Below, piece after piece: positions 20,472-60,214 of a stretch of 64,000 bases of DNA. Positions within the stretch are counted from its first letter, which is position 1, and every line of letters begins with the position of its first letter. The notes beneath the pieces are model-generated. The model was not told where the DNA came from and ran no database searches. It worked only from the letters and a program-made list of their open reading frames with translations. The translations under genes and the position numbers were made by a program. This DNA comes from Spirochaetota bacterium (GTDB lineage: Bacteria; Spirochaetota; JAGLSM01; JAKPMW01), in the NCBI GenBank assembly GCA_031283155.1, contig JAITCI010000018.1, positions 13,690-77,689 of the forward strand. The letters are read 5' to 3'.

Positions 20472-23400
20472 TTATGGCGGCGGCGTGGACGAGGTATTGA
20501 ACGCTATCTGATACGTACCGCTGTTGCTTGAGTTGTACGGCCATACGCGGAGGTAATAGGTTTGCCCTTCCGTGAGCGTGTAGCTTGCCCACGTATAGCT
20601 TTCATACAGATTTGGTGTGGTCGATGTAGTGCCGCCCTTCTCTGTGCCGGTCAGTACAGTGCCGCTCTGATTAAGCACCTGGATATACAGATCGGTTAAT
20701 GTGCCGTAGGTGACATGGATATATTGCGTTGCCGCCGTTGCGGTAAAGCTGAACCACTGGGCTCCATAGGAAGCAATGCTGCCGTTTTCCCAGACATTTG
20801 CGGTGAGTATGGCCGCGCCGCCGGGCGGCAAAAAGCTTGCGTTGAACCCTATCTGGTATGTCCCTGTATAACTGTTGTCATAAGGCGTTACTCTGACGTA
20901 GTAAACCTGCCCAACCGTAAGCGTTCGCGAATCATACGCAGTGCTGCTATATACCGATTGGCTCCCCACAGCCGTTCCGGCCTGGTCGTACACTTGCACA
21001 CGCAGAGCAGTCAGCGTACCAAAAGCGACATGGATATACTGCGTTACTGCCGTAGCGGTAAAACTGAATCCTTGCGTCCCGCCGGAAGCAAGGCTGCCGT
21101 TGGCGAAGGTATCTGCGGTGAGCGGAGTAATGCTTGTACCCGGAGGCCAGTGCGTTGTGGTATACGCCATCTGGTATGTACCGCTACTTGTGCCATTCCA
21201 TACCCGGATGTAATAGACTCGTCCGCTTGTGACTGTTTGCGCGGCATACAAAGTGCTGCTATCTAACTTCGATTGGTTCCCGACCGCTGTACCGCTTTCG
21301 TCATACATCTGCATATACACGCCATACGAAGAACTCAATGTGCCGAAAGCGGCGTGGATGTACTGCGTACCGGAATTTGCGGTCAACCGGAACCACTGAT
21401 ATCCTCCGGAAGCAAGGCTGCCATTCGCCCAGGAGTCAGCGGAAAGCGCTACAGGATTGATGGGCGGAAAAACTTCGCCGGACTGAAACGGCGGCAGACT
21501 TGATGCATTAAACGCTATCTGATACGTACCGCTGCTGCTTGAGTAGTACGGCCATACGCGGAGGTAATAGGTTTGCCCTTCCGTGAGCGTGTAGCTTGCC
21601 CACGTATAGCTTCCATACAGATTTGGGGTGGTCGATGTATTGCCGCCCTCCCTTGTGCCGGTCAGTACAGTGCCGCTCTGATTAAGCACCTGGACATACA
21701 GATCGGCTAATGTGCCGTAGGTGGCATGGATATATTGCGCCGCTGCCGTGGCGGTAAAGCTGAACCACTCTGCCCCGCCGGATGCAATGCTGCCACCAGC
21801 AAAGGTATTTACGGTGAGCGGAGTGACGCTTGTGCCGGGCGGCAAAAAGCCCGCATTGAATCCTATCTGGTACGTCCCTGTATAACTGTTGTTATAGGGC
21901 GTTACTTTGACGTAGTATTCCTGCCCAACCGTAAGCGTTCGCGAGGCATACGCGGTGCCGCTGTATAAACGCGATTGGCTCTCTACAGAAGTGCCGTCCC
22001 CGGCATATACCTGCATATACACACCATAGCTTGAATTCAGCGTACCAAATGCGGCGTGAATATATTGGGTTGCTGCCGTCGCGGTAAAGCTGAACCACTC
22101 TGCCCCGCCGGATGCAATGCTGCCACCAGCAAAAGTATTTACGGTGAGCGGAGTGACGCTTGTGCCGGGCGGCAAAAAGCCCGCATTGAACCCTATCTGG
22201 TACGTCCCTGTATAACTGTTGTTATAAGGCGTTACTTTGACGTAGTAAACCTGCCCAACCGTAAGCGTTCGCGAGACATACAAGGCACCGCTGTATAAAC
22301 GTGATTGGCTCTCTACAGAAGCGCCGTCCCCGGCATATACTTGCATAAGCGCACCATAGCTTGAATCGAGCGTACCAAAAGCGGCGTGGATATATTGCGC
22401 CGCTGCCGTGGCGGTAAAGCTGAACCATTGCACCCCGCCGGCAGCAAGGCTGCCATTAGCGAAAGTATTTGCGGTGAGCGAAGTGATACTTGTACCGGGC
22501 GGCAAAAAGCCCGCATTGAACCCTATCTGGTACGTCCCTGTATAACTGTTGTTATAGGGCGTTACTTTGACGTAGTATTCCTGCCCAGCCGTAAGCGTTC
22601 GCGAGACATACAAGGCACCGCTGTATAAACGTGATTGGCTCTCTACAGAAGTGCCGTCCCCGGCATACACCTGCATAAGCGCACCATAGCTTGAATCGAG
22701 CGTACCAAAAGCGGCGTGGATATATTGCGTATTGGAATTTGCTGTAAAACGGAACCACTGGATCCCGTCTGAAACAAGACTGCCGCTTTTCCAGGCATTT
22801 GCGGTGAGTATGCTCGTATCCGGCGGCCAGAGAGCTGTGTTAAACCCTATCTGATACGTCCCGGTATAGCTGTTATTATAAGGCGTTACTTTGATGTAGT
22901 ATACCTGCCCAACCGTAAGCGTTCGCGAATCATACACAGTACCGCTGTATAAACGCGATTGGCTTCCTGTTGTTGTACCGCCTTCGGTATACACCTGCAT
23001 AAGTACGCCATAGCTTGAATTGAGCGTACCAAAAGCGGCATGGATATATTGCGTACTGGAATTTGCGGTCAAACTGAACCACTCTGTCCCGCCGGAAGCC
23101 AGACTGCCATTGGCGAAAGTATCTGCGGCGAGCTGCGTGATGCTTGTGCCGGGCGGCAAAAAACAAGTATTAAAGCCTATCTGGTATGTACCGGTATAAC
23201 TGCTGCTCCATGGCCATACCCGGATGTAATAGATCTGCCCGGGAATGAGCGCGCGGGAGATATATGCGGCACTGCCGATTATATTCGACTGCTCCCCTAT
23301 CGCATACCCAATGCTGTTATACACCTGTACGGTTATGCCATAATAAGAATTTAATGTGCCAAAAATGGCATGGATATACTGCGTGTTGGAATTCGCCGTA

Positions 23401-24128
23401 AAACGAAACCATTGGTCGCCATTCTCCAGAAAACCATTATCTGTCCAGGTATTTTCGGTTAAATCGGTTATACCGAATGCGGGCAGCGTTATCGGCAGCG
23501 TAGGATATCTGTTGAATAATATGGTGTATGTTCCGCTGCCGATATTCGACCATACACGGATAAAATACACCTGCCCGGGAATAAGCGGGCGGGAGGCGCT
23601 TTGCGTACTGCCGTAAAGATTTGAGTTGCCTCCGGCTACATTGCCGGCATTGTCATACACTTGTATATACAAATTGCTGAGCGTACCAAAAGCCACATGA
23701 AAATACTGCATACCTGCCGTCGCGGTAAAACGGAACCACTGCTCTTCGCTCGGGGCAATATTGCCATTGGTCCAGACGTCCTCCCTCAGAGGAATTGCGC
23801 CTGCCTGCGTTTTACCGTCGGCGGAACTGGCTGAACTGGTGAATTGCGATGAACCTGTAAAATCGACAGAACTGGCGAATTGCGATGACCCCATAGAATC
23901 GACAGAATTGGCTGAAACAGACGCAGCCGACGCGGAATCGACAGAATTGGCTGAAACAGACGCAGCCGACATGGAAGTATTCAAATCTGCGGAACTGGCT
24001 GAGCTTGATGATGCTGTCAAATCTTCATCTTCGCCGCCGCAAGCCGCAAACAAGCAGCAAAACGCAATGAAAACAGAAAAGATTGGGCAAAAAACAACGC
24101 CTTTTTTGTTTTGCGCAAAAATTTTCAT
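20472..24128 (-). CDS. Large surface lipoprotein with 10 tandem PPC-like beta-sandwich repeats
   Basis: Lipobox FAAC, Ser-rich linker, 10 units of about 105-110 aa (QWF.FTA...QYIH..FGTL...GQ.YY.RV.PY...G.YQI.FN); no catalytic domain recognised. Confidence 0.8.
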   Translation of the reverse strand: MKIFAQNKKGVVFCPIFSVFIAFCCLFAACGGEDEDLTASSSSASSADLNTSMSAASVSANSVDSASAASVSANSVDSMGSSQFASSVDFTGSSQFTSSASSADGKTQAGAIPLREDVWTNGNIAPSEEQWFRFTATAGMQYFHVAFGTLSNLYIQVYDNAGNVAGGNSNLYGSTQSASRPLIPGQVYFIRVWSNIGSGTYTILFNRYPTLPITLPAFGITDLTENTWTDNGFLENGDQWFRFTANSNTQYIHAIFGTLNSYYGITVQVYNSIGYAIGEQSNIIGSAAYISRALIPGQIYYIRVWPWSSSYTGTYQIGFNTCFLPPGTSITQLAADTFANGSLASGGTEWFSLTANSSTQYIHAAFGTLNSSYGVLMQVYTEGGTTTGSQSRLYSGTVYDSRTLTVGQVYYIKVTPYNNSYTGTYQIGFNTALWPPDTSILTANAWKSGSLVSDGIQWFRFTANSNTQYIHAAFGTLDSSYGALMQVYAGDGTSVESQSRLYSGALYVSRTLTAGQEYYVKVTPYNNSYTGTYQIGFNAGFLPPGTSITSLTANTFANGSLAAGGVQWFSFTATAAAQYIHAAFGTLDSSYGALMQVYAGDGASVESQSRLYSGALYVSRTLTVGQVYYVKVTPYNNSYTGTYQIGFNAGFLPPGTSVTPLTVNTFAGGSIASGGAEWFSFTATAATQYIHAAFGTLNSSYGVYMQVYAGDGTSVESQSRLYSGTAYASRTLTVGQEYYVKVTPYNNSYTGTYQIGFNAGFLPPGTSVTPLTVNTFAGGSIASGGAEWFSFTATAAAQYIHATYGTLADLYVQVLNQSGTVLTGTREGGNTSTTPNLYGSYTWASYTLTEGQTYYLRVWPYYSSSSGTYQIAFNASSLPPFQSGEVFPPINPVALSADSWANGSLASGGYQWFRLTANSGTQYIHAAFGTLSSSYGVYMQMYDESGTAVGNQSKLDSSTLYAAQTVTSGRVYYIRVWNGTSSGTYQMAYTTTHWPPGTSITPLTADTFANGSLASGGTQGFSFTATAVTQYIHVAFGTLTALRVQVYDQAGTAVGSQSVYSSTAYDSRTLTVGQVYYVRVTPYDNSYTGTYQIGFNASFLPPGGAAILTANVWENGSIASYGAQWFSFTATAATQYIHVTYGTLTDLYIQVLNQSGTVLTGTEKGGTTSTTPNLYESYTWASYTLTEGQTYYLRVWPYNSSNSGTYQIAFNTSSTPPP
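21730..22760 (-). repeat. Near-identical 330-bp intragenic tandem repeats
   Basis: TATATTG anchor recurs at 21731, 22061, 22391, 22721. Confidence 0.9.
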
Positions 24129-25232: not shown

Positions 25233-25333
25233 ATGCAGCCCCTCAGTCGCGCGCAACTAAAACGTACCCTGCGTTCAAATTTTCCGCTGTACGCCCCTCG
25301 TTCACCCTCGCTGCGCTGCAGCAAGGGCATAGA

Positions 25334-25369
25334 GCGTACATTACCCTACGGGCACTTCGCCATGTACGC
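25334..25369. repeat. Palindromic family core module
   Basis: GCGTAC-attaccctacgggcacttcgccat-GTACGC, homologous to 56724-56759 inside murT. Confidence 0.8.
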
Positions 25370-25459
25370 GCTCGGGACACGACATCCTGGTCGTAGCCTT
25401 CCGAAAATAGCCTCAGCATGATAGAATGGCAAGCCGCAGACAGCCGAAATGGAGGATAT

Positions 25460-27326: not shown

Positions 27327-29816
27327 TTATTTCGCCTTTTTTGCGTCGGCTGCGCTGATAGACGTGTCGTAAAGACCGATGTCCTCTCCTTCGTGCCGAT
27401 TGATTCCAGTATACTCCAGCGAGGAATCCTCATAGCGCTTGAACTTATACACTGCGTCGTTCATAAGGGCGCTATTGAATACGCCCAGCGATACGAGCAA
27501 CTCGAAATCTTTGATTTCCAAACCGGTCGTCTTTTTGAAAAGCCCCGGCTCTAATTGCGTAATAACGTCCTTCAGCGAGCGCTCGCGGTAGTCCGTCAGA
27601 TACATAAAGACGGGAATACGCGTTGCGAATTTAATAAGTTTCTCCTGAATTTGCTTGCGGACGCTCTTATATTCTTTTTCTTCCTCGGTAAGCTGTTTCT
27701 TCTCTTTTTCGGAAAGTTCCTTCTCGTTCGCTTTTGTTTTGAGTTTATTTACGCTCTCGGACTTGTTGATAATCGTTTCTATATCCTGATTGAGATTGCG
27801 GAAACCTTCGATATTCATAAGGGCTTCCATCGCTTTCGGATTGTCCATCAAGCGGCGAAGAGTATTGTTATCTACGTTGACGAGCAAGGCGCTTTCCCAG
27901 CGGCGGGCGAGTAAGGTCGCCGTCGTACCGGCCATCGCCATATCGAGAACTCCGGCTGCGTCGATTTGTTTCATAGAACTTCCGTCGTAGGCGAGGACGG
28001 GCAGGAAATTGATAAACTCCGCAACCTTCTTCTCGGGATTGCTTTCGTTCAGGTCGAGACGGCAACTATATTCCGCAATCTGCTTCAACGCGCGGTCGGG
28101 CGCGAAATCAAACACGTAGCAGTCCTCTTTGAGTATCGTATCCGTTCCGTCGGGGTTCTTCGTCGTCCACGGCGTTTGAACGCGGAAGGCGGCCTGGAAG
28201 TAGGTCTCGGGGCTTGACGAGTTGCGGAGCATAAAGATACCCGACCACGGCTTTACCGATACCCCGGTCGTCAGTTTGCCGCAGGAGAGGGTTATCGTCT
28301 TTGTTTTGAGCGGGTCGTCCATTCCCTTGAATACGGGGAAAAGCGCTTGCACCCCAATACCGGCTTCGCTGCCGGCGGCGACGATAACCTGATAATCCTT
28401 GTAAAAGATATTTTGCCGTTTATCCAAAAGATTTTTCATAGCATAGCAACTGGCGACGGACGGCAAGAACCAGAACGTATGGGTGAGCAGCCCGAGCAAT
28501 CGAGCGTCCGAGAATGGCATAGGCGGTTTTTGAGTGCCGAGTTTCAAACTGTCGATAGTCGTTTCCATAAACGCGCCGCGAATGAGGTCGAGCCATTTTT
28601 GAACTTCGCTCTCGTGCATGAATTTCGCCTTGTCCGCAGCGTCGGCAGCCGAGAAAAACTCGTTGAGGTCGAACTCGTTAAACTCGCCTTGCAGGGCAAC
28701 ATCGCGGATTGCATCCGGCAGTTGATAGGTAAGCATAACCATTCGCGGAAGCGAACTGTAGGGGTTAGTATTCTTCCTGTCCTTCCATGCATTTTTTTCA
28801 CGCTGCTCGTCGGAATACGTCCAGTTATAGATTTGTTCTTCGATAAACTCGCCGCTTGCGATGGCGCGAAACGGCGTACCGGACAGATACAAATACGCGC
28901 CGGTAGTTATGGGCATATTGTTTTCGTCGTAGTAATCCAGCCCCGCGCCTTCTTCCCGCTTGTCTTCCGCTTCAAATAAATCCTTAGCGTTTTCGCGCCA
29001 CGCGCCGTAATGGTATTCATCCAGAATCACGCAGTCCCAGTTCGCAGAATGGACCCATTCGTTTTTCGCCTTGATACCGCCGACTTTGTTCTTTCCGAGT
29101 AAATCCTGAAACGAGCCGAAGGCAACCATCGGACCGGCTTTGCGCGGCCTGGAAAACGACGCTTCCCCGGTATGCTCTTTGCAAACTATGAACTGCCAAC
29201 CGTCAAAGTCGGTATGGGATTTCAAATCATCCTCCCATGCGTTTTGAGCGGCGGGCTTGAAGGTAAGGACAAGTATCTTCGTCCAGCCCATCGCCTTTGC
29301 GAGTTGGTAAGCGGTGAAAGTTTTGCCAAAACGCATTTTGGCGTTCCATAGAAAATGCGGGGTCTTATGCGGGTTTTCTTTTTTGTAACTTTGGAAATAC
29401 GCCATTGTCTTTTTGACGGCGGCTTCCTGCTCGGGCCGCATTCCAAAGGTGTTCGTGCGCGGCATATCGAACTCTTTGCGCTCGCGCAGGGCAACGCAGG
29501 CGGCCTTTACGTCGCGGACGGAGCATTTGAACCATTCGCCCTCGGGGTTCAGGAACTTCCGATTGCGAAGATAGCGGTGAACATCGTGGTCGGTAAAAGA
29601 CGAGCCATCCTCGCGCATTGCGGTTTCTATCAATACGATTTTATAAGGGGCTTTGCCTGGACGCTTGGTCGGGTATTGCTGGGCGACGCGCTCTTCGGCG
29701 GACTGGGCGGATGTATAGCCGACTTTTAATAGTCCGGCATACTGCGGGTTTGTATCCTCATAGGCATAGATTGTCGGGCAAGCCTCGGGGCGCTTTGGGA
29801 AAAAGTCCTTATTCAT
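27327..29816 (-). CDS. T5orf172/GIY-YIG nuclease fused to SF2 (ResIII-like) helicase
   Basis: IYAY...LLKVGYT...EGEWF; AKMRFGKT, LDEYH, LSGTP, KLTTGV, YFQAAFR. Confidence 0.85.
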   Translation of the reverse strand: MNKDFFPKRPEACPTIYAYEDTNPQYAGLLKVGYTSAQSAEERVAQQYPTKRPGKAPYKIVLIETAMREDGSSFTDHDVHRYLRNRKFLNPEGEWFKCSVRDVKAACVALRERKEFDMPRTNTFGMRPEQEAAVKKTMAYFQSYKKENPHKTPHFLWNAKMRFGKTFTAYQLAKAMGWTKILVLTFKPAAQNAWEDDLKSHTDFDGWQFIVCKEHTGEASFSRPRKAGPMVAFGSFQDLLGKNKVGGIKAKNEWVHSANWDCVILDEYHYGAWRENAKDLFEAEDKREEGAGLDYYDENNMPITTGAYLYLSGTPFRAIASGEFIEEQIYNWTYSDEQREKNAWKDRKNTNPYSSLPRMVMLTYQLPDAIRDVALQGEFNEFDLNEFFSAADAADKAKFMHESEVQKWLDLIRGAFMETTIDSLKLGTQKPPMPFSDARLLGLLTHTFWFLPSVASCYAMKNLLDKRQNIFYKDYQVIVAAGSEAGIGVQALFPVFKGMDDPLKTKTITLSCGKLTTGVSVKPWSGIFMLRNSSSPETYFQAAFRVQTPWTTKNPDGTDTILKEDCYVFDFAPDRALKQIAEYSCRLDLNESNPEKKVAEFINFLPVLAYDGSSMKQIDAAGVLDMAMAGTTATLLARRWESALLVNVDNNTLRRLMDNPKAMEALMNIEGFRNLNQDIETIINKSESVNKLKTKANEKELSEKEKKQLTEEEKEYKSVRKQIQEKLIKFATRIPVFMYLTDYRERSLKDVITQLEPGLFKKTTGLEIKDFELLVSLGVFNSALMNDAVYKFKRYEDSSLEYTGINRHEGEDIGLYDTSISAADAKKAK

Positions 29817-31344
29817 TATCCGCCCCTTTTGCGTTCGCGTCCATCGGGCGAATCATGGAATCTATAAAGGCGATTTCGTCTTTGGTGAGGTCGTATTTTT
29901 TATAGAGTTTTTCGTCCGTCCATTCTTCGGAGAAGTCTTGCATGGGGACGAAATTATAAACTCGTTTCGGCGCGTCCTGTGTATTCTTTATTTGCAAAAC
30001 CAAAAAGCGGAAGAATTCAGTAGTAATATATTTTAAGGCGTTCTCCGCCATTGTCTTTGTTTTGAATGGCCCTATAAGCAAAAATGTTTCCGTGCAACAC
30101 GAATTCGGCTCTCCGACGAAAGGTTTGCCAAGAACTAAATAAGGGAACGATCCGCGTTCGCCATAGGCTCTTGAAATGTATAATTTCCAAGAATCTATCC
30201 ATTGCTGATTTTCAACAACTTCTTCTTTGGTAATAAAACTTTCTTCTTTGCAAATGTTTCTATTGGCATATAATTTGACAGAATTTTTGTCTTTTGTTTT
30301 CTTCCCTTGGACGTAAGTTCTTAAACCAAACGGCTTTTGCGAGCTAACGATTTCGGCAAAACTTTTTTCTTTCAATTTATGCGCTTTTTTTACAATACTG
30401 ATAGCCTCGTTAAATCTTATAAATGTGTCGCTATTATCTTCCAATAGCGGTCGGGTCATAACAGATTCCTGCCCAGCGCGAACCGATTTGATTTCGCACT
30501 CGCCCTTGTTGTCCCTGTCCCAAAGGAAATAACAAACGCCGCCAGAAATATCCACGCCAGGGAAACATTCTGTGGAATCAAAATAATCAACTATTTTTCG
30601 CACTCTGTTATCGTGCAACATTTCGGATCGAAACTTATCAAGGCCGCGTCCGCCGGCATACCAACGCGCCGGAACGATCATTGTAAGATAGCGCGGATTT
30701 AGCTTTTGCGCTTGTTGTATAAATTTATGATACAAAGGAATTGCGCTCGCCTGTGCGCCGCCGTCGCCGAGCTGATATGGCGGATTTCCTATAATTACGT
30801 CAAACTTCATATTGAATAACTCCTCTGGCTTCTTTGTGTGGATAAACTGGTATGCGTGGCTTTCAAGTCCGTCGTCGCGTTTATATTCGGACTCGGACGC
30901 GCCACAATACTCGCATCGGCCGCCAACCCAGTTATGTTTTGTCGGCGTATACCGGATATTGCCTTGCTCGTCCTTAAACTCGGTGCATAGCGAATACTGC
31001 GTATGATCGGCCTTCTTCGCGCAATAGACGCTCCGCCGCGATAGCAAACCCGTCATTTCCGTTATCGCAAGCCCGAAAACCTGATTTGTAAGAATATGGT
31101 TTATCCGCTTTTGCAGATCGGGGATTTCCTTTTTCAAACCCTCGTTCAGGCGCTTTACTATCTCGCGCAGGAATACGCCGGACTTACAGCAAGGGTCGAG
31201 AAAGGTCGCGTTTTTATCTTTCCAAATTTTCCCGGGCAACAGGTCGAGCAAGTTGTTCGCCATCTGCGGCGACGTGAATACCTCGTCGTTAGACAGGTTT
31301 GCCAAACAGGTGAGAACGTCGGGGTTATAGTTAGTCCTGAACAT
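29809..31344 (-). CDS. Eco57I-type N6-adenine DNA methyltransferase with TRD
   Basis: FLDPCCKSGVF motif I, IIGNPPY motif IV, AT-richer C-terminal TRD. Confidence 0.88.
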   Translation of the reverse strand: MFRTNYNPDVLTCLANLSNDEVFTSPQMANNLLDLLPGKIWKDKNATFLDPCCKSGVFLREIVKRLNEGLKKEIPDLQKRINHILTNQVFGLAITEMTGLLSRRSVYCAKKADHTQYSLCTEFKDEQGNIRYTPTKHNWVGGRCEYCGASESEYKRDDGLESHAYQFIHTKKPEELFNMKFDVIIGNPPYQLGDGGAQASAIPLYHKFIQQAQKLNPRYLTMIVPARWYAGGRGLDKFRSEMLHDNRVRKIVDYFDSTECFPGVDISGGVCYFLWDRDNKGECEIKSVRAGQESVMTRPLLEDNSDTFIRFNEAISIVKKAHKLKEKSFAEIVSSQKPFGLRTYVQGKKTKDKNSVKLYANRNICKEESFITKEEVVENQQWIDSWKLYISRAYGERGSFPYLVLGKPFVGEPNSCCTETFLLIGPFKTKTMAENALKYITTEFFRFLVLQIKNTQDAPKRVYNFVPMQDFSEEWTDEKLYKKYDLTKDEIAFIDSMIRPMDANAKGADNE

Positions 31345-32017
31345 CTGCCAGCCTTAAATAATGGATTACATCGTGTTCCTTTATCGGCTTTGGGATAAAG
31401 ACCTCTTCGCCCAAATCCGAAAAAAGATTTTTTTCTTCCATTTCAGGAAACAGACCAGCGCCGGCGAAAGGGTTTGCATTGACGAGATGGGTAAACTTGA
31501 AATCGCGCCGTTTCATGAAACTGCCATTGACGGGCGACCATTCGGAGAAGATGATAAAGTCATCGGGAGCGTCAATGCGGCGGAAGGTCAAGGCGTCGCC
31601 TAAAACGATATTTTTTTTCAGGATAAACCTGGCGCTGGCCGCGCAATCTGACGGCGCGTCCGTCTTATAGGTTTTCCGGTAAAAGTCGTTAAATACTCCG
31701 AACAGGCGCTCGCGGCAGTTTTCAACATTGTCCGGCAAAATATCGATTCCATAGATACTCGACACAACGAGGACGGCATAGCGGTCATATTCTGCCGGGG
31801 ACTTCGCGTAGCGGCCGGCAACAACGCCCAGTTTGCGCTTTAAGACCTCTGCCAGGAAGTTGCCCTTGCCGCAAGCGGGTTCAAGGAAACGGGAATCTAT
31901 CCGTTCGGTTTCGGACTTCACCAAATCGAGCATGGCGTTGACCTCGCGCCCGGCGGTATACACTTCGCCGTGATCGCGGGTGCGCTGTCTTGATACAATT
32001 TGTTGCTCGGTTTCCAT
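31331..32017 (-). CDS. Truncated methyltransferase-fold protein (motif I only)
   Basis: GEVYT, FLEPACGKGNFL, IYGIDIL, NIVLGDAL, but no NPPY/DPPY before the stop. Confidence 0.8.
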   Translation of the reverse strand: METEQQIVSRQRTRDHGEVYTAGREVNAMLDLVKSETERIDSRFLEPACGKGNFLAEVLKRKLGVVAGRYAKSPAEYDRYAVLVVSSIYGIDILPDNVENCRERLFGVFNDFYRKTYKTDAPSDCAASARFILKKNIVLGDALTFRRIDAPDDFIIFSEWSPVNGSFMKRRDFKFTHLVNANPFAGAGLFPEMEEKNLFSDLGEEVFIPKPIKEHDVIHYLRLADVQD

Positions 32018-32277: not shown

Positions 32278-32457
32278 ATCTGGCAAATTTGGTGTATGCT
32301 TTTGCGCACACGGCTTCATGCCCGAAAGGCGAGGACGAATGGAAATTCGAAGCGGGCATCGTTTTGCGTGTCATATCTTTACAGTATATCTACATTGCCC
32401 AATTTTGCAAACAAAAATTTTCGCGGCGGAAATTCAGCCGCGAAAAGGCACGAAAAG

Positions 32458-32609
32458 CCCCGCGCCAAGCGCAACATCCTGTTGCGCGCGGGGTGCTTGC
32501 GTCCTGCAAGCACAACTACAAGGCATTTGGCCACGAAAAATGCCGAATAAAGTCCCCGCGCCGGTCGCAACATCCTGTTGCGCGCGGGGTGCTTGCATCG
32601 TGCAAGCAC
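32458..32609. repeat. Two tandem copies (96-bp period) of the modular palindromic element
   Basis: CCCCGCGC..GCAACATCCTGTTGC.GCGCGGGG-TGCTTGC(GTCCT/ATCGT)GCAAGCAC at 32458 and 32554; a TTTTCGCGGC/GCCGCGAAAA hairpin lies just upstream. Confidence 0.9.
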
Positions 32610-32919
32610 GAATAAGGCAAAAAACACCAGGAATGTTTTTTACTCAAACTCACGGCTTTTGGCCGCCGATACCTTTGATCTGTAGCTTCTATGATTTCTC
32701 CTCATACGTGGTTCGGGAGCGAATGAGTACCGTAAAATAAAACAGACCAATAACACCTGCGTCACGGGCACGCTAAACGAAAAAGAGAAGCGACCAATGG
32801 GTGCCTCTCTTATACACAAAATTACATACACCTATTTTCCAATCGAAGCCTGCGCGGCCGCGAGAGCGGCGAGGGCTAATATTTTTCTTTGGAACAGAAG
32901 CCGCCCTCGCATCATGCGC

Positions 32920-33918
32920 CTACCGGGAAACCGCAAGCACCGCGATGCGCGTATGTCCCGCGAGATCCTGCCTGGTCTCGCAGGAGAAACCGGCCTCGCG
33001 CGCGAGGCGCAGCACCCCCGTCAGAACGCTGTCGCTGATCTCAAAAACCGCTCTTCCCTGCGGCGCGAGTATTTTCGGTAAAGCGTTTATAAGCCTGCGA
33101 TAGAGCGCGAGCCCATCATCCTCTGCTGTCCCTCGCGCTTGTGCCCGAAAGGGTATACTTGCGCCATCCCCGCTTTGCGCGTTTCGCGTGGCTTCGCTCG
33201 GGATGCAACATCCTGTTGCTATCAGAGCCTGCGCGGGTTCGTATATGCGGACGTCGGGCATACAGGCATGATACTCCGCGGTGCCGAGATACGGCGGGTT
33301 GGAGACAATGAGATCAAAATTTCCTTCAATCCCCGCGAAGAGATCGCCCAGCACAAATGCGCAGCGCGCGCGTTCGCCCGCATCGAGCAACCTCTCGGCG
33401 TTACGCTTGGCCCAGGCGAAGGCGTCGGGAGATATCTCCGTCGCCCACACCTCAGCCTCCGGAAAAATACGCGCGAGACAGATCGCAAGCGCGCCGCTGC
33501 CCGTACCCACATCGATGATCCGACGCGGAGTAATCGTGAACGCGCGCGTGATATCGATAATCAATTCGGTTTCCGGGCGCGGGATCAGCACCTCCGGGCC
33601 GACCGCAAACGAAAGCCCATAAAATTCGCGTTCTCCGGTTATATAGGCAATCGGCTCAAACGCGGCGCGGCGCGCGAGCACAGCCTGATATTTTTCCGTC
33701 TCTTCGGCGTCAAGAGCGCGCTCGGGATGCGCGTAGAGATCGGATCGCCCCGAGCGCAGTACAAACGCGAGCAGCACTTCCGCGTCGAGGCGGGCGTTAT
33801 AATCGGTTTCTTGAATTGGCGAATGGGCTGCCCATGCACTATGAAGCCGGAGCGCGCCCGCGTCCAGCGCGTCGCGCACAGTCTTTGCGTGGCTTACGGC
33901 GTGGTCAGAGGCTTTCAT
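32920..33918 (-). CDS. prmC: Release-factor glutamine methyltransferase with a 30-aa insertion
   Basis: LIPRPETE, DVGTGSG, SNPPY; downstream of prfA; start ATG 33918. Confidence 0.93.
   Translation of the reverse strand: MKASDHAVSHAKTVRDALDAGALRLHSAWAAHSPIQETDYNARLDAEVLLAFVLRSGRSDLYAHPERALDAEETEKYQAVLARRAAFEPIAYITGEREFYGLSFAVGPEVLIPRPETELIIDITRAFTITPRRIIDVGTGSGALAICLARIFPEAEVWATEISPDAFAWAKRNAERLLDAGERARCAFVLGDLFAGIEGNFDLIVSNPPYLGTAEYHACMPDVRIYEPAQALIATGCCIPSEATRNAQSGDGASIPFRAQARGTAEDDGLALYRRLINALPKILAPQGRAVFEISDSVLTGVLRLAREAGFSCETRQDLAGHTRIAVLAVSR
33130..33219. repeat. Palindromic element inserted in frame in prmC
   Basis: Contains GTGCCC-GAAA-GGGTA, CATCCC/GGGATG and GCAACATCCTGTTGC modules shared with intergenic copies. 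Confidence 0.8.
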
Positions 33919-34996
33919 CGGCGCCGATATACGAGGCAAGAATCTTCTCGCGGCGGTCGCGTTCGAGAGCATCGACCACCTCGCTTAAATCGCCCGCCAT
34001 GATCGCCTGCAGCCTGTACCAGGTTTCATGGATGCGATGATCGGTCACGCGGTTTTCGTTAAAATTATATGTACGAATACGCTCCGAGCGATCCCCCGTA
34101 CCCACCTGGCTGCGGCGCATGGCCGACATCTCGCTCTGCCGCTCCGCCTCCTGCCGTTCCGCGAGCCGCGCGCGCAATACCTTCAGGGCGCGCGCCTTGT
34201 TTTTGTGCTGGCTCTTCTCATCCTGGCAAGTTACCACCAAACCCGTAGGCAGATGGGTCACGCGCACGGCGCTGTCGGTGGTATTGACGCTCTGCCCGCC
34301 GGGACCGGAGGAACGGAAGACGTCGATCCGGAGATCCTTTTCGGCGATTTCGATTTCGCTCTCCTCCGCCTCGGGCATCACCGCAACGGTCGCGGCGGAG
34401 GTATGGGTGCGCCCGCCGCTTTCGGTTTCGGGAACGCGCTGCACACGATGTGTGCCGGATTCAAACCGAAAGAGTTCCCAGGCGCGGTCGCCCGCTATGT
34501 TCAGAATGATTTCCTTGAAACCGCCGAGACCCGTTGGATGCGACGAGAGTATCTCAAGCGCGAGCTTCTGATCCTCCGCGAAGCGGCTGTACATGCGCAA
34601 AAGATCGGATACAAATAAGGCGGACTCGTCGCCGCCCGTACCCGCGCGCAACTCCACAATGATATCCTTGCCCGCCTGCGGATCCGGCGGGATCAGAAAC
34701 AGCCGCACCTCGCCCGCAATGGTTTGCTCTTCGCCCTCCGCCTGCGCGAGTTCCTCCGCCGCAAGCGCGCGCATCTCGGGATCATGCTCGGCTGTGAGCA
34801 ATTCCTGCGCCTGGGCAATCCGGCGCGCCGCCGCAAGATAGCGCGTATGCAGTTCCCCGCCGCGCGAAAGACGCCCATGTTCGCGCGCGAGTTCGCGGTA
34901 GCGCCGCATATCGTTGGTTATATCGGGCTGCGAAAGTAATCCCTCTACCTCAAGACGGCGGCGGGTAACCTCTTCGAGCCTATCGACGAGGGACAT
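33905..34996 (-). CDS. prfA: Peptide chain release factor 1
   Basis: GGQ motif, PET tripeptide, ERIRTYNF. Confidence 0.97.
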   Translation of the reverse strand: MSLVDRLEEVTRRRLEVEGLLSQPDITNDMRRYRELAREHGRLSRGGELHTRYLAAARRIAQAQELLTAEHDPEMRALAAEELAQAEGEEQTIAGEVRLFLIPPDPQAGKDIIVELRAGTGGDESALFVSDLLRMYSRFAEDQKLALEILSSHPTGLGGFKEIILNIAGDRAWELFRFESGTHRVQRVPETESGGRTHTSAATVAVMPEAEESEIEIAEKDLRIDVFRSSGPGGQSVNTTDSAVRVTHLPTGLVVTCQDEKSQHKNKARALKVLRARLAERQEAERQSEMSAMRRSQVGTGDRSERIRTYNFNENRVTDHRIHETWYRLQAIMAGDLSEVVDALERDRREKILASYIGADESL

Positions 34997-38339: not shown

Positions 38340-39278
38340 TCACTTTTTGCCTGGACGCTTCAGGCTGCTCTGGGGCATTCGTGCCTTACCCGGAGATAAC
38401 GACGGCGCGGTGGCGGATTTGTTATACGAAAGCATGACAGTGCCGGCATCGTCGGTGTAATACGCCCACACGCGGAGATAGTATGTTCCTCCGCTCACAA
38501 GCGACGTCCATCGCGCAGATGGTTCATCTTCGGGGACATAATATATGAAAAGGTTTTCTATTTCCCCTTCAAGCGCGCCAGATCCGGTAAACATCTGCAC
38601 ATATATATCATACACCGAAGAGTCCTCGTAGAGATGTATATAATGCGTCGCCGCTGTCGCGGTAAACTTAAACCACCATACTCCGCCTGCATTCAGATGC
38701 CCGCCCAGCCACTCGCCTTCAGTAAGCTCGGTAGTGATAGAATTTGCCGGTGGCCAGGTTTCACCCGGCAGCATAGGAGATCCGTTAATTGTCATTTGGT
38801 ATGCGCCGACGTCGGAGTCATCATATGCCCACACGCGCATATAATACGTCTGCCCAATTTCAAGCGTCCGCGCCATAACCAACTGAGAGCCATACTCTTC
38901 ATCATCGAACAGATTTTCCTCATCGCCGACAACAGCGCCGGTACCGGCATACACCTGCAGCAATACGTCCGACAGAGTGCTGGGCTTAAAATGTATATGC
39001 TGCGTTGCTGCCGTCGCTGTAAAGCGAAACCACTGTGTTCCGCCTGCGGCAGTGATATTCCCGTTTACCCATGTGTTGAAACTCAACTCCGTCACGGACG
39101 CCGACGCCCAGGGAAGAGAAGAATCGCCGCCGCTGTCGGATGAGCCGCCGCCTGGTATACTGCTGCTTCCGCCCTCATCATCGCCGCCACAGGCAGCACA
39201 CAGAGCGCAGAAGACGATCAGAATTAAGGACAGAAAAATGAAGCGGGAAGAAAAACCACTCCTGGTATCGATCTTCAT
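38340..39278 (-). CDS. Lipoprotein with two PPC-like repeats (paralogue of 20472-24128)
   Basis: Lipobox CAAC, GGTQWFRFTATAATQHIH, GQTYYMRVWAY; ATG 39278 with GAGGTGG RBS. Confidence 0.8.
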   Translation of the reverse strand: MKIDTRSGFSSRFIFLSLILIVFCALCAACGGDDEGGSSSIPGGGSSDSGGDSSLPWASASVTELSFNTWVNGNITAAGGTQWFRFTATAATQHIHFKPSTLSDVLLQVYAGTGAVVGDEENLFDDEEYGSQLVMARTLEIGQTYYMRVWAYDDSDVGAYQMTINGSPMLPGETWPPANSITTELTEGEWLGGHLNAGGVWWFKFTATAATHYIHLYEDSSVYDIYVQMFTGSGALEGEIENLFIYYVPEDEPSARWTSLVSGGTYYLRVWAYYTDDAGTVMLSYNKSATAPSLSPGKARMPQSSLKRPGKK

Positions 39279-55587: not shown

Positions 55588-55829
55588 TATGCTCCTTTAT
55601 TCCCCGCGACGCCGTTTATAACAGCGGCTGCGTTTCCATTATAGACAAAAGAGCCGCTGCTGGCAAGCTCGCCGCCGCCCGGGGCACATTCAGAGACGGA
55701 ACGATTTTTGTACTGGTTCCCGCGTATCTTTTATCCGGGATTATGCCTTTCAGGTATTACGGCACACAACTTCGCGGCTATGTAGTCTTGTCGTCCCCGC
55801 TCGCGGAACGCTTGCTTTCGGCGGGAAGT

Positions 55830-55892
55830 GCCCCGCACTTTTCGACATCCGTGTCAGTGCGGGGTGCTCCCCTTCCAGGTACGCATGTTTGG
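55830..55892 (+). repeat. Palindromic element, direct-repeat partner of 60151-60214
   Basis: CCCCGCAC-ttttcGACATCCGTGTCa-GTGCGGGG-tgctccccttccaggtac. Confidence 0.85.
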
Positions 55893-58257: not shown

Positions 58258-58430
58258 GGGCTACGACAGGAAGTCGTGTCCCGCGAGCGTACATGGATGT
58301 ATGCTCTTGCGCAGGGGGAGGCGCAAATAATTCTGTTTTTTTTTGTGACAGGTATCGCACACTGAAATAACTGCGCAAAAATACATTTATAAGCAGCGCT
58401 CTGCCGCCGCAAACACGAGGTTTGCGACTG

Positions 58431-58465
58431 GCGCGCAACAGGATGTTGCGACCGGCGCGGGGACT
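58431..58465 (-). repeat. Exact 35-bp reverse-complement copy of 32551-32585
   Basis: GCGCGCAACAGGATGTTGCGACCGGCGCGGGGACT. Confidence 0.92.
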
Positions 58466-59718: not shown

Positions 59719-60150
59719 CTCACCCCCAAAAAGCTACACTAACCTCTCCTGCTTAATACAGAAGCCGCGCTGCGAGCATCACTTGCCTGAATTTTCGCAC
59801 CGCCCTTCGCAAAAGTAAGGAATCCCGCTTCCGCAAATTATAGAACTCCAGGCGGCGGTGACTTTCGTCAGTATAGCTCCCGTAAACATTGCTATAGGAT
59901 TACTTTCTACTACATTTCATCCTGTGCCAGGTGAAACATAAAACCGGGCGGAAAATGTTCTCTGTGGCGCTTAACGGCTTGATTCAGAGCCTTAAGCTCA
60001 GCTCTGTATAATTCCGCTCAATCACGGCCAAGCATGACTTTTGACCCGTGAATTTCGTCCCGCTCGCGTTGTGCGCGTTGCGCAGGGATTTCATGGCCAG
60101 AAATTTCTTTGCTTTTGCATATCCTGCGGAACGGCATTTTCGGAGGCTAT

Positions 60151-60214
60151 GCCCCGCACTTTTCGACATCCATGTCGGTGCGGGATGTTCCCCTTCCTGG
60201 TACACAACGTTTGG
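60151..60214 (+). repeat. Palindromic element within a repeat cluster (about 60050-60430)
   Basis: Matches 55830-55892; the cluster also holds GTGCCCTGTG, AGTCCCCGCGC and a TTCCGAAGT/ACTTCGGAA hairpin. Confidence 0.85.

Follow-up and report, generated by a model that had tools for sequence, protein, structure and literature searches.

The prmC gene of an uncultured, deep-branching spirochaete (Spirochaetota bacterium, assembly GCA_031283155.1) lies within a 64,000-nt stretch of contig JAITCI010000018.1 (positions 13,690 to 77,689), hereafter the window, and its reading frame is lengthened by a segment of DNA that belongs to a family of short hairpin repeats dispersed through the same genome. 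The assembly amounts to 2.5 Mb in 89 contigs, with a GC content of 54% and a completeness of 94%. The coding sequence of prmC (32920..33918, minus strand) specifies the release factor N5-glutamine methyltransferase PrmC, also named HemK, and follows immediately after prfA (33905..34996, minus strand), which encodes the substrate of PrmC, peptide chain release factor 1 (RF1). The open frame around prmC extends over 32920..33972 on the minus strand, and translation probably begins at the ATG at 33918-33916, so that prmC overlaps the end of prfA by 14 nt. The open reading frame (ORF) of prmC contains the NPPY catalytic motif, and a search of the PDB placed the HemK proteins of E. coli and Thermotoga as the best solved-structure matches of its product (E = 2e-36), while the Pfam domains PrmC_N (PF17827) and MTS (PF05175, class I methyltransferase) were found on the representative of its sequence cluster (P0001). 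The prfA product is 51-61% identical to RF1 of the Spirochaetota and other bacteria among the named genomes retrieved, 61% being the maximum, and the PCRF and RF-1 domains were found on the orthologous prfA of a relative's contig (L031), which has the same prfA-prmC order. The closest PrmC relative anywhere (P0002, 63% identity) is encoded on a metagenome contig of the Joint Genome Institute (JGI) with the order L27-prfA-prmC. By its motif, domains, fold and prfA neighbour, the host gene is prmC/hemK, and no second prmC match occurs in the assembly.

Between the segments ...EPAQALIA and EDDGL of this PrmC, an in-frame insertion of 93 nt or 31 codons (33124..33216, minus strand), delimited by codon alignment with P0002, encodes TGCCIPSEATRNAQSGDGASIPFRAQARGTA, and the peptide NAQSGDGASIPFR belongs to its predicted translation. 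An initial annotation, made from the sequence alone, had proposed an in-frame insert between EPAQALIA and DGL, and the peptide that it quoted is indeed present in the ORF; its estimate of about 30 extra residues was right as to the extra segment and short by one residue as to the length. The interval that it gave, 33130-33219, coincides exactly with the outer limits of the repeat motifs, CCCTCGC beginning at 33130 and GCAACATCCTGTTGC ending at 33219. The DNA of P0002 aligns codon by codon on both flanks and leaves a clean gap of 93 nt (31 codons). As read from the sequence, the insert is flanked by a 4-nt direct repeat, TGCT, with a left copy at 33124..33127 (+) and a right copy at 33217..33220 (+) that overlaps the 3' arm of the second hairpin of the repeat. 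Since TGCT stands at both ends, the boundary of the insert is ambiguous by 4 nt, and 33124-33216 is equivalent to 33128-33220. To judge from the sequence, this flanking pair could be a target-site duplication or a microhomology. The host DNA at the junctions reads ...GCTCTGATAGCA on one side and GAGGATGATGGG on the other.

The insert is absent from the PrmC of all 28 related genomes compared, two of which belong to the same genus, and all of them run directly from ...EPxxALxA to (D/E)xGL. In an alignment of 70 sequences, the segment measures nine residues in each of the 69 other homologues and 40 in the present protein. The PrmC structures found by the PDB search also lack it, and the alignment to the 4dzr chain breaks exactly there (query 250-285 against 133-137). 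Thus, the view that a typical PrmC has no such insert is well founded, and the finding that would have spoken against it, namely relatives with an equally long loop, was sought and did not appear, the site being invariant in length in 69 of 69 homologues. A scan of metagenomes for the prmC flank returned nothing, and a protein search returned no second sequence of the species, the next PrmC being 63% identical.

The inserted DNA is made up of recognizable parts, which are given here on the plus strand. The 5' end motif of a 55-nt repeat unit, CCCTCGC, is located at 33130..33136 and is followed, within the spacer of the unit, by a nested hairpin module GCTTGTGCCCGAAAGGGTATA (33137..33157; GTGCCC/GGGTAT stem, GAAA loop), which was recognized by comparison with other copies, since it occupies the same position in the copies at C7:3047-3086, C42:19414-19447 and C77:11302-11337 of the assembly; it also stands alone in C29, C49, C5 and C28. 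The first hairpin (33160..33195) is disrupted and appears to consist of a 5' arm and loop TGCGCCATCC, a second nested module CCGCTTTGCGCGTTTCGCG at 33170-33188, and a degenerate 3' arm TGGCTTC, when compared with the canonical form TGCGACATCCATGTCGCA taken from 100 regular-expression matches; a related module, CCGCTTTGCGCGCAAGCG, is found in copies on C9 and C52. The central motif GCTCGGGAT (33196..33204; consensus GCTCGGGAC in the alignment with family units) precedes the second hairpin GCAACATCCTGTTGC (33205..33219), which is intact, with a 5-bp stem and an ATCCT loop, and reads GCAACAGGAUGUUGC on the mRNA strand. The three fixed motifs of the unit thus stand in the correct order within the insert (CCCTCGC at 33130, GCTCGGGAT at 33196 and GCAACATCCTGTTGC at 33205), and the insert has in common with the family the motifs CCCTCGC, GCTCGGGA(C/T) and GCAACATCCTGTTGC, together with the GTGCCCGAAAGGGTAT module. 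The genome contains 28 exact copies of GCAACATCCTGTTGC, four of them in the window, where five matches occur at no more than two mismatches against 0.1 expected. Moreover, the 5' 40 nt of the insert match the copy at C7:3047-3086 at 39 of 40 positions (blastn against the genome, E = 6e-14), and this best-matching copy is itself in frame inside a metallo-hydrolase gene. The minimum free energy fold of the prmC mRNA strand retains the second hairpin, while the RNA fold of the whole insert is not more stable than those of shuffled sequences (z = -1.16), as expected of a decayed composite copy. The end motifs, the internal modules and the match of 39 nt in 40 bear out the proposal that the insert carries repeat modules, and a mismatch between insert and repeat model, which would have told against that proposal, was looked for in the same comparisons and was not found.

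The canonical unit of the family is 55 nt long and reads CCCTCGC-AAGA-[GCGTACATCC(A/T)TGTACGC]-GCTCGGGAC-[AGAAC(A/C)TCCTGTTCT]-AG, that is, a conserved 5' motif followed by a pair of hairpins whose (N)TCC(N)T loops are conserved. In 40 aligned units, CCCTCGC is invariant except for a single C-to-T change. A family profile built from 36 units and searched with nhmmer against the 2.5-Mb assembly gave 119 matches at E<1e-3 and, with the cut-off relaxed to E<0.05, 133 merged regions, and a loose regular expression matched 100 times in the genome vs. one to five times in shuffled genomes. For the strict pattern CCCTCGC-N18-32-GCTCGGGAC, 41 matches were counted in this genome and none or one in each of 60 related genomes; the single matches are confined to three genomes (including one of two congeners), lack the hairpins and appear chance-like. 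The contig of the closest PrmC relative has no match to the strict pattern, and a scan of JGI metagenome contigs with the repeat core gave none either. The family is therefore an expansion private to the species or to a very narrow clade, and the insertion in prmC is the derived state, given this lineage restriction and the empty site in all relatives.

The hairpins of the unit have diverged as paired structures. The second hairpin, which follows GCTCGGGAC, is represented by at least 17 distinct 5-bp stems, all perfectly paired, that enclose the conserved NTCCT loop, and three base pairs of this hairpin show 10-18 double compensatory changes among the 40 units. These stems were counted directly because RNAalifold, run on a MAFFT alignment, was affected by misplaced gaps in the first hairpin, and only the covariation of the second hairpin was usable. 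Units occur singly or in 55-nt tandem arrays, and many of them hold further hairpin modules of 18-28 nt in their spacers or loops, sometimes three deep. Head-to-tail arrays of two to four units without spacers were observed at C55:8436-8650 and C68:13026-13135, and the strand of such arrays that carries GGA would resemble a multi-hairpin RNA of the CsrB type; to our knowledge, no CsrB-like RNA has been described in the phylum. Most copies are intergenic and prefer the 3' ends of genes, with 30 copies between convergent gene pairs vs. eight between divergent ones, and a minority are intragenic. A k-mer census of intragenic repeats (k = 12 and 15) was dropped, as GC-rich codon repeats and paralogous domains dominated its output, and profile and module searches took its place.

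The prmC copy is not alone in its position. Repeat copies lying in spanning open frames with coding-like flanks were screened, and the candidates were checked by Pfam and PDB alignments; at least 11 further genes with Pfam-confirmed domains carry in-frame segments derived from the repeat, and ten further genes are recorded with domains that flank or span the insert. Against PDB homologues, purH has gained 57 residues, made of two units, within the AICARFT domain, and nnr/YjeF has gained 46 residues that split the YjeF_N domain. The spanning-frame screen, supported by Pfam, further yielded an iorA-like oxidoreductase, an Eco57I-type restriction-methylase with the copy just before its NPPY motif, a hydrolase of the metallo-beta-lactamase (MBL) fold, and a radical-SAM/DUF2344 gene, and the module search, likewise supported by Pfam, added recC, argH, comEC (two in-frame copies), a B12-radical-SAM gene, and a PDDEXK_2 nuclease or putative transposase gene. 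None of these in-frame copies introduces a stop or a frameshift. The PDDEXK_2 gene provides a comparison of filled and empty sites inside the genome, since 11 paralogues read ...LYYWAR directly followed by EY..., and one carries 57 additional nt that correspond to a canonical unit. The hydrolase copy encodes ASIPFRAQARG, a peptide also present in the PrmC insert, because each of the two copies is the nearest relative of the other and both share one reading frame. About nine of the 11 in-gene copies are read on the reverse strand of the element, as is the prmC copy, a bias that is not significant at so few cases.

The enzyme itself appears to have accommodated the extra residues. None of the six frames of the insert contains a stop, so that the insertion introduced none. 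PrmC is 71.5% identical to P0002 upstream of the insert and 60% downstream. For an AlphaFold2 model based on the alignment of 70 sequences, the mean predicted local distance difference test (pLDDT) score is 90.8 and the predicted template modelling score 0.87; across the insert, pLDDT is 45-73 (block means 73, 51, 45 and 71), and in the flanks it is at least 92. Foldseek aligned this model with E. coli PrmC as seen in the complex with RF1 (2b3t_A), giving a target-normalised template modelling (TM) score of 0.91 and a root-mean-square deviation of 2.5 A. The insert peptide is of low complexity and rich in Ala, Gly, Ser, Thr and Arg. Of the checks that the initial annotation had recommended, the alignment of relatives showed the insert to be confined to this protein, and the structural modelling placed it as a low-confidence loop in an intact predicted fold. 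As modelled, the fold of PrmC is intact despite the insert, which most likely forms a tolerated surface loop, and the activity on RF1 and RF2 is most likely preserved, to judge from the model and the sequence.

These observations are best explained if the prmC insert is a decayed composite copy of the lineage-specific hairpin repeat, which entered the gene in frame and left the enzyme otherwise intact, an explanation that is held with high confidence. It is carried by membership of the segment in the family, the clean in-frame insertion, its absence from relatives, the open frame, the intact predicted fold, and the similar inserts in at least 11 other genes. According to this explanation, a non-coding, hairpin-forming repeat would have multiplied to well over 100 copies in this genome, most of which would have settled between genes, preferentially at 3' ends, and a minority inside genes. 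Intragenic insertions would have survived where their length was a multiple of three, where they brought no stop, and where the protein tolerated an extra loop. The prmC copy, read on the reverse strand and with two small hairpin modules nested within it, would add a 31-residue, probably disordered loop to the catalytic domain, between the EPxxAL segment and the helix cap at DGL. The insert peptide is presumably made, and the insertion is probably neutral or slightly deleterious rather than useful. Both the copy number and the restriction to one lineage suggest that the repeat is selfish in the sense of active self-propagation.

Several points weigh against this explanation. Firstly, no mobilising enzyme was found, and the REP-associated tyrosine transposase (RAYT; REP, repetitive extragenic palindromic) is absent, with 0 matches to the Y1 transposase profile (PF01797) in the 94%-complete assembly and matches in the control genomes. 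Secondly, the species is represented by one genome in all the collections searched, and there is no empty-site allele among them. Thirdly, the insertion site is not an obviously variable loop but a turn of invariant length that bears a motif between invariant A/L and G residues, and a functional cost of an insertion there is possible. Finally, the hidden Markov model (HMM) of the family matches the prmC copy weakly (E = 0.028, positions 23-52), which is due to the nested modules; thus, family membership rests on the motif architecture and on the blastn match.

The same length-invariant site is what could be held to favour a first alternative, in which the insertion inactivated or crippled PrmC and the gene is a young pseudogene, or encodes a poor enzyme, in which stops and frameshifts have yet to accrue. 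The insertion falls into a segment of fixed length (69 of 69 homologues), between near-invariant residues of the HemK signature EPxxAL...DGL, and the loss of prmC is viable in some bacteria, as in prmC mutants of E. coli K-12. However, the frame is open through the insert and the whole gene, and the downstream region still retains 60% identity to the nearest relative. In addition, the inserted copy is itself decayed, as seen in its disrupted first hairpin and weak HMM match, which suggests age, and a gene dead for so long should therefore show damage elsewhere. The unperturbed predicted fold, the absence of a second prmC and the similar inserts tolerated by 11 other genes also speak for a working enzyme, and inactivation is considered unlikely.

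A second group of alternatives ascribes a use to the repeat, and the most specific of them involves the RNA-binding protein CsrA. The consensus of CsrA obtained by systematic evolution of ligands by exponential enrichment (SELEX) is RUACARGGAUGU, in which ACA and GGA are invariant and GGA lies in a hairpin loop (PMC4347634). On its reverse strand, the unit presents GUACA(A/U)GGAUGUAC as the first hairpin and ACAGGA(U/G)GU as the second, which match this consensus in sequence, and the spacing of the pair, about 26 nt, would suit a single CsrA dimer. The genome encodes csrA (C18:10395-10550), and the prmC mRNA carries the GGA version of the second hairpin, GCAACAGGAUGUUGC, which matches the CsrA-binding core ACA-GGA-UGU. 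Transcribed copies or arrays might thus act as dispersed CsrA-binding sites or sponges, and the in-gene copies might place housekeeping mRNAs under CsrA, although on the sequence evidence this is judged distinctly improbable. The orientation of intergenic copies relative to transcription (28:19) is not significantly biased, and about a quarter of the hairpin loops across the genome carry CGA instead of GGA.

More generally, the insert in prmC could have been co-opted, so that the extra loop, through a new protein-protein contact, or the mRNA hairpin, as a regulatory element, has acquired a function. The second hairpin has stayed intact on the mRNA strand of an otherwise decayed copy, the reverse-strand hairpins of the family fit the CsrA consensus with GGA in the loop in a genome that has csrA, and about nine of the 11 in-gene copies are oriented such that the GGA hairpins appear in the mRNA. 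Against this stand the orientation ratio and the CGA loops just mentioned, the low complexity and predicted disorder of the insert peptide, and the fact that the prmC copy is indistinguishable from other tolerated insertions. Co-option is accordingly given very little weight.

An assembly artefact, in which a repeat path was mis-threaded between the two halves of prmC, has to be considered because this is a metagenome-assembled genome of 89 contigs, rich in the kind of short repeats that often break or confuse short-read assemblies, and one junction of the PDDEXK_2 copy is found again at the end of a contig, where it continues differently. However, the insert is exactly 93 nt long, in frame and free of stops, and it is located centrally in an 86-kb contig, flanked on either side by unique sequence. 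Its composite sequence is unique, so it is not a collapsed consensus, and the k-mers across the junctions that a false path needs would not exist unless some molecules really contained these junctions. Furthermore, random mis-threading would not produce twelve independent insertions that are all in frame and a multiple of three in length, and an artefact of this kind is hardly credible. Finally, an intein or intron was rejected on size and on the absence of any motif.

Returning to the repeat as a spreading element, its features differ in several respects from those of the common classes of small mobile sequences. A REP/RAYT system of the REPIN type was rejected because the Y1 transposase is missing from the 94%-complete assembly and because the hairpins of the unit consensus CCCTCGC...GTTCTAG bear neither a GTAG nor a CGTC tag at either end. 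A typical transposable element of the miniature inverted-repeat kind (MITE) was rejected for want of terminal inverted repeats (TIRs), the first 12 nt of the consensus matching the reverse complement of the last 12 nt at only six of 12 positions. The BoxC/PIT/TMECO intrastrand triplex motif, whose consensus is CCCTCNCCC-N3-6-GGGNGAGGG-N3-GGGNGAGGG (PMC4666352), had 0 matches in the genome and was likewise rejected; a loosened pattern returned a poly-G artefact alone. The flanking direct repeats of three junction pairs differ in length, namely TGCT of 4 nt in prmC, GA of no more than 2 nt in the PDDEXK_2 paralogue, and 20 nt in nnr, the short ones being possibly due to chance. At the nnr copy (C4:29133-29284), a host sequence of 20 nt, CCAGGCGCGCAAAGACTGCG, is directly duplicated, with its copies 132 nt apart and with a duplication of QARKDC in the protein; the left junction falls in TGCG, which is common to the host and to a hairpin arm of the repeat, and this 20-nt duplication is unlike a short target-site duplication of fixed length. 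Because the duplications are variable, microhomology is present, modules are nested in hairpin loops, and both TIRs and a RAYT are lacking, copying by hairpin-driven template switching or repair capture through microhomology would seem to fit these three junctions somewhat better than a transposase of the fixed-stagger or cut-and-paste type. The twelve PDDEXK_2 (Rpn-like) paralogues are distributed over C5, C21, C23, C33, C36, C46, C59, C69, C79 and C89, and five of the twelve genes have a repeat copy within 600 nt vs. about 1.3 expected. There is a weak hint here, suggestive only, that the PDDEXK_2 product might be the partner enzyme that mobilises the repeats.

The colonisation of genes by palindromic repeats that remain in frame is already established in Rickettsia, Wolbachia and Coxiella, and the present family behaves alike. 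The Rickettsia palindromic elements (RPE-1 to RPE-10; Ogata et al. 2000/2002) occur as in-frame insertions, 44 of them in genes of R. conorii (PMC10969869). Like them, the spirochaetal family is a multi-copy, palindromic, non-coding repeat of which a sizeable minority lies in frame within unrelated metabolic or housekeeping genes, adding a peptide loop with which the protein folds appear compatible. Being dispersed in many copies and present in frame within genes, it belongs to the behavioural class of RPE-like in-frame palindromic repeats. The parallel with RPEs drawn by the initial annotation, in which a repeat makes new protein sequence in a housekeeping enzyme, is thus supported, and it is strengthened by the at least 11 further genes. 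Membership of the RPEs proper is not claimed, as the two differ in unit length and host phylum and are presumably unrelated in sequence. The present unit measures 55 nt and not roughly 100-150 bp, is modular with nested small hairpins, and also forms tandem arrays, while its host is an environmental member of the Spirochaetota with a 2.5-Mb genome and not a reduced, obligate intracellular alphaproteobacterium.

Wolbachia palindromic elements and the Coxiella elements QMITE1 and QMITE2 are further small repeats that lie in frame within ORFs and alter the protein sequence (PMC1779305; PMC5896051). The QMITEs have terminal inverted repeats as well as direct repeats and occur mostly in hypothetical genes or at gene ends, whereas the present unit lacks terminal inverted repeats and lies mid-domain in conserved enzymes. 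REPs and bacterial interspersed mosaic elements (BIMEs) associated with RAYTs, or REPINs, are short palindromes tagged with GTAG or CGTC (PMC3733652; PMC3184786). The likeness to these is considerable, since the units are short, GC-rich, imperfect palindromes of high copy number that are mostly extragenic, located at gene 3' ends or between convergent genes, clustered or in tandem, and endowed with covarying stems; however, the tag and the RAYT are missing here, the loops are conserved rather than the stems alone, and intragenic insertions are frequent. The present case stands apart from the known ones by a modular, nested unit of 55 nt with neither TIRs nor RAYT, by an environmental spirochaete as host, and by one insertion into a length-invariant, motif-bearing turn of a translation-termination enzyme.

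Most documented cases of the phenomenon come from Rickettsia and from a small number of other intracellular bacteria, and here it affects at least 12 genes in the normal-sized genome of an environmental spirochaete. This genome can thus be regarded as a natural experiment on the tolerance of conserved enzymes to extra loops and as an illustration of one way in which new protein sequence originates from non-coding repeats. Moreover, the architecture of hairpins within hairpins supplies many internal comparisons of filled and empty sites that bear on the copying of repeats, and the hairpins that resemble the CsrA consensus offer a concrete and cheaply testable hypothesis. For annotation, such inserts should not be taken for frameshifts, inteins or novel domains.

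Other copies of modular hairpin families are present in the window. Downstream of prmC, the repeat search found two intergenic copies of a sister family with the same architecture as the 55-nt family. The first (32453..32518, +) contains CCCCGCGCC..GCAACATCCTGTTGC..GCGCGGGG and a second hairpin, and the second (32549..32614, +) is 86% identical to it, the two being recorded as 96 nt apart. Their scores against the Rfam family Bacillaceae-1 (RF01690), 30.7 and 26.3 bits, respectively, lie below the gathering threshold of 35 bits, as does the best score in the genome (33.6), and membership of RF01690 was rejected since every copy is sub-threshold. Bacillaceae-1 consists of two hairpins with RUCCU loops, and its reverse complement was proposed by Gardner and Eldai as a CsrA-binding small RNA (PMC4333381). 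The present family likewise has two hairpins, with AUCCU/CUCCU terminal loops, and its reverse strand has ACA-GGA-UGU hairpins; it differs in being a dispersed spirochaetal repeat of more than 100 copies, whereas RF01690 is a single-locus motif of the Bacillales. Further intergenic copies of these same modular hairpin families lie at 25333-25395, 55829-55885, 58261-58311, 58414-58465 and 60150-60206 of the window.

Just downstream of the intergenic repeat cluster that follows prmC, two adjoining and overlapping ORFs of 511 residues, with a GNPPY motif, and 228 residues occupy positions 29809-32017 on the minus strand; to judge from its sequences, this pair resembles DNA methyltransferase or restriction-modification-type genes and probably represents an acquired restriction-modification module. 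A long array of tandem repeats of about 330 nt (110 codons), which are 60-92% identical, extends over 20478-23814 in an apparent, very large gene for a repetitive surface protein, and related units are found 15 kb away, at 38635-39054. In the assembly as a whole, the most frequent 12-mer is poly-C/poly-G (n=199), an abundance that may reflect long homopolymer tracts or else artefacts of sequencing at the ends of contigs, e.g., at C53:70.

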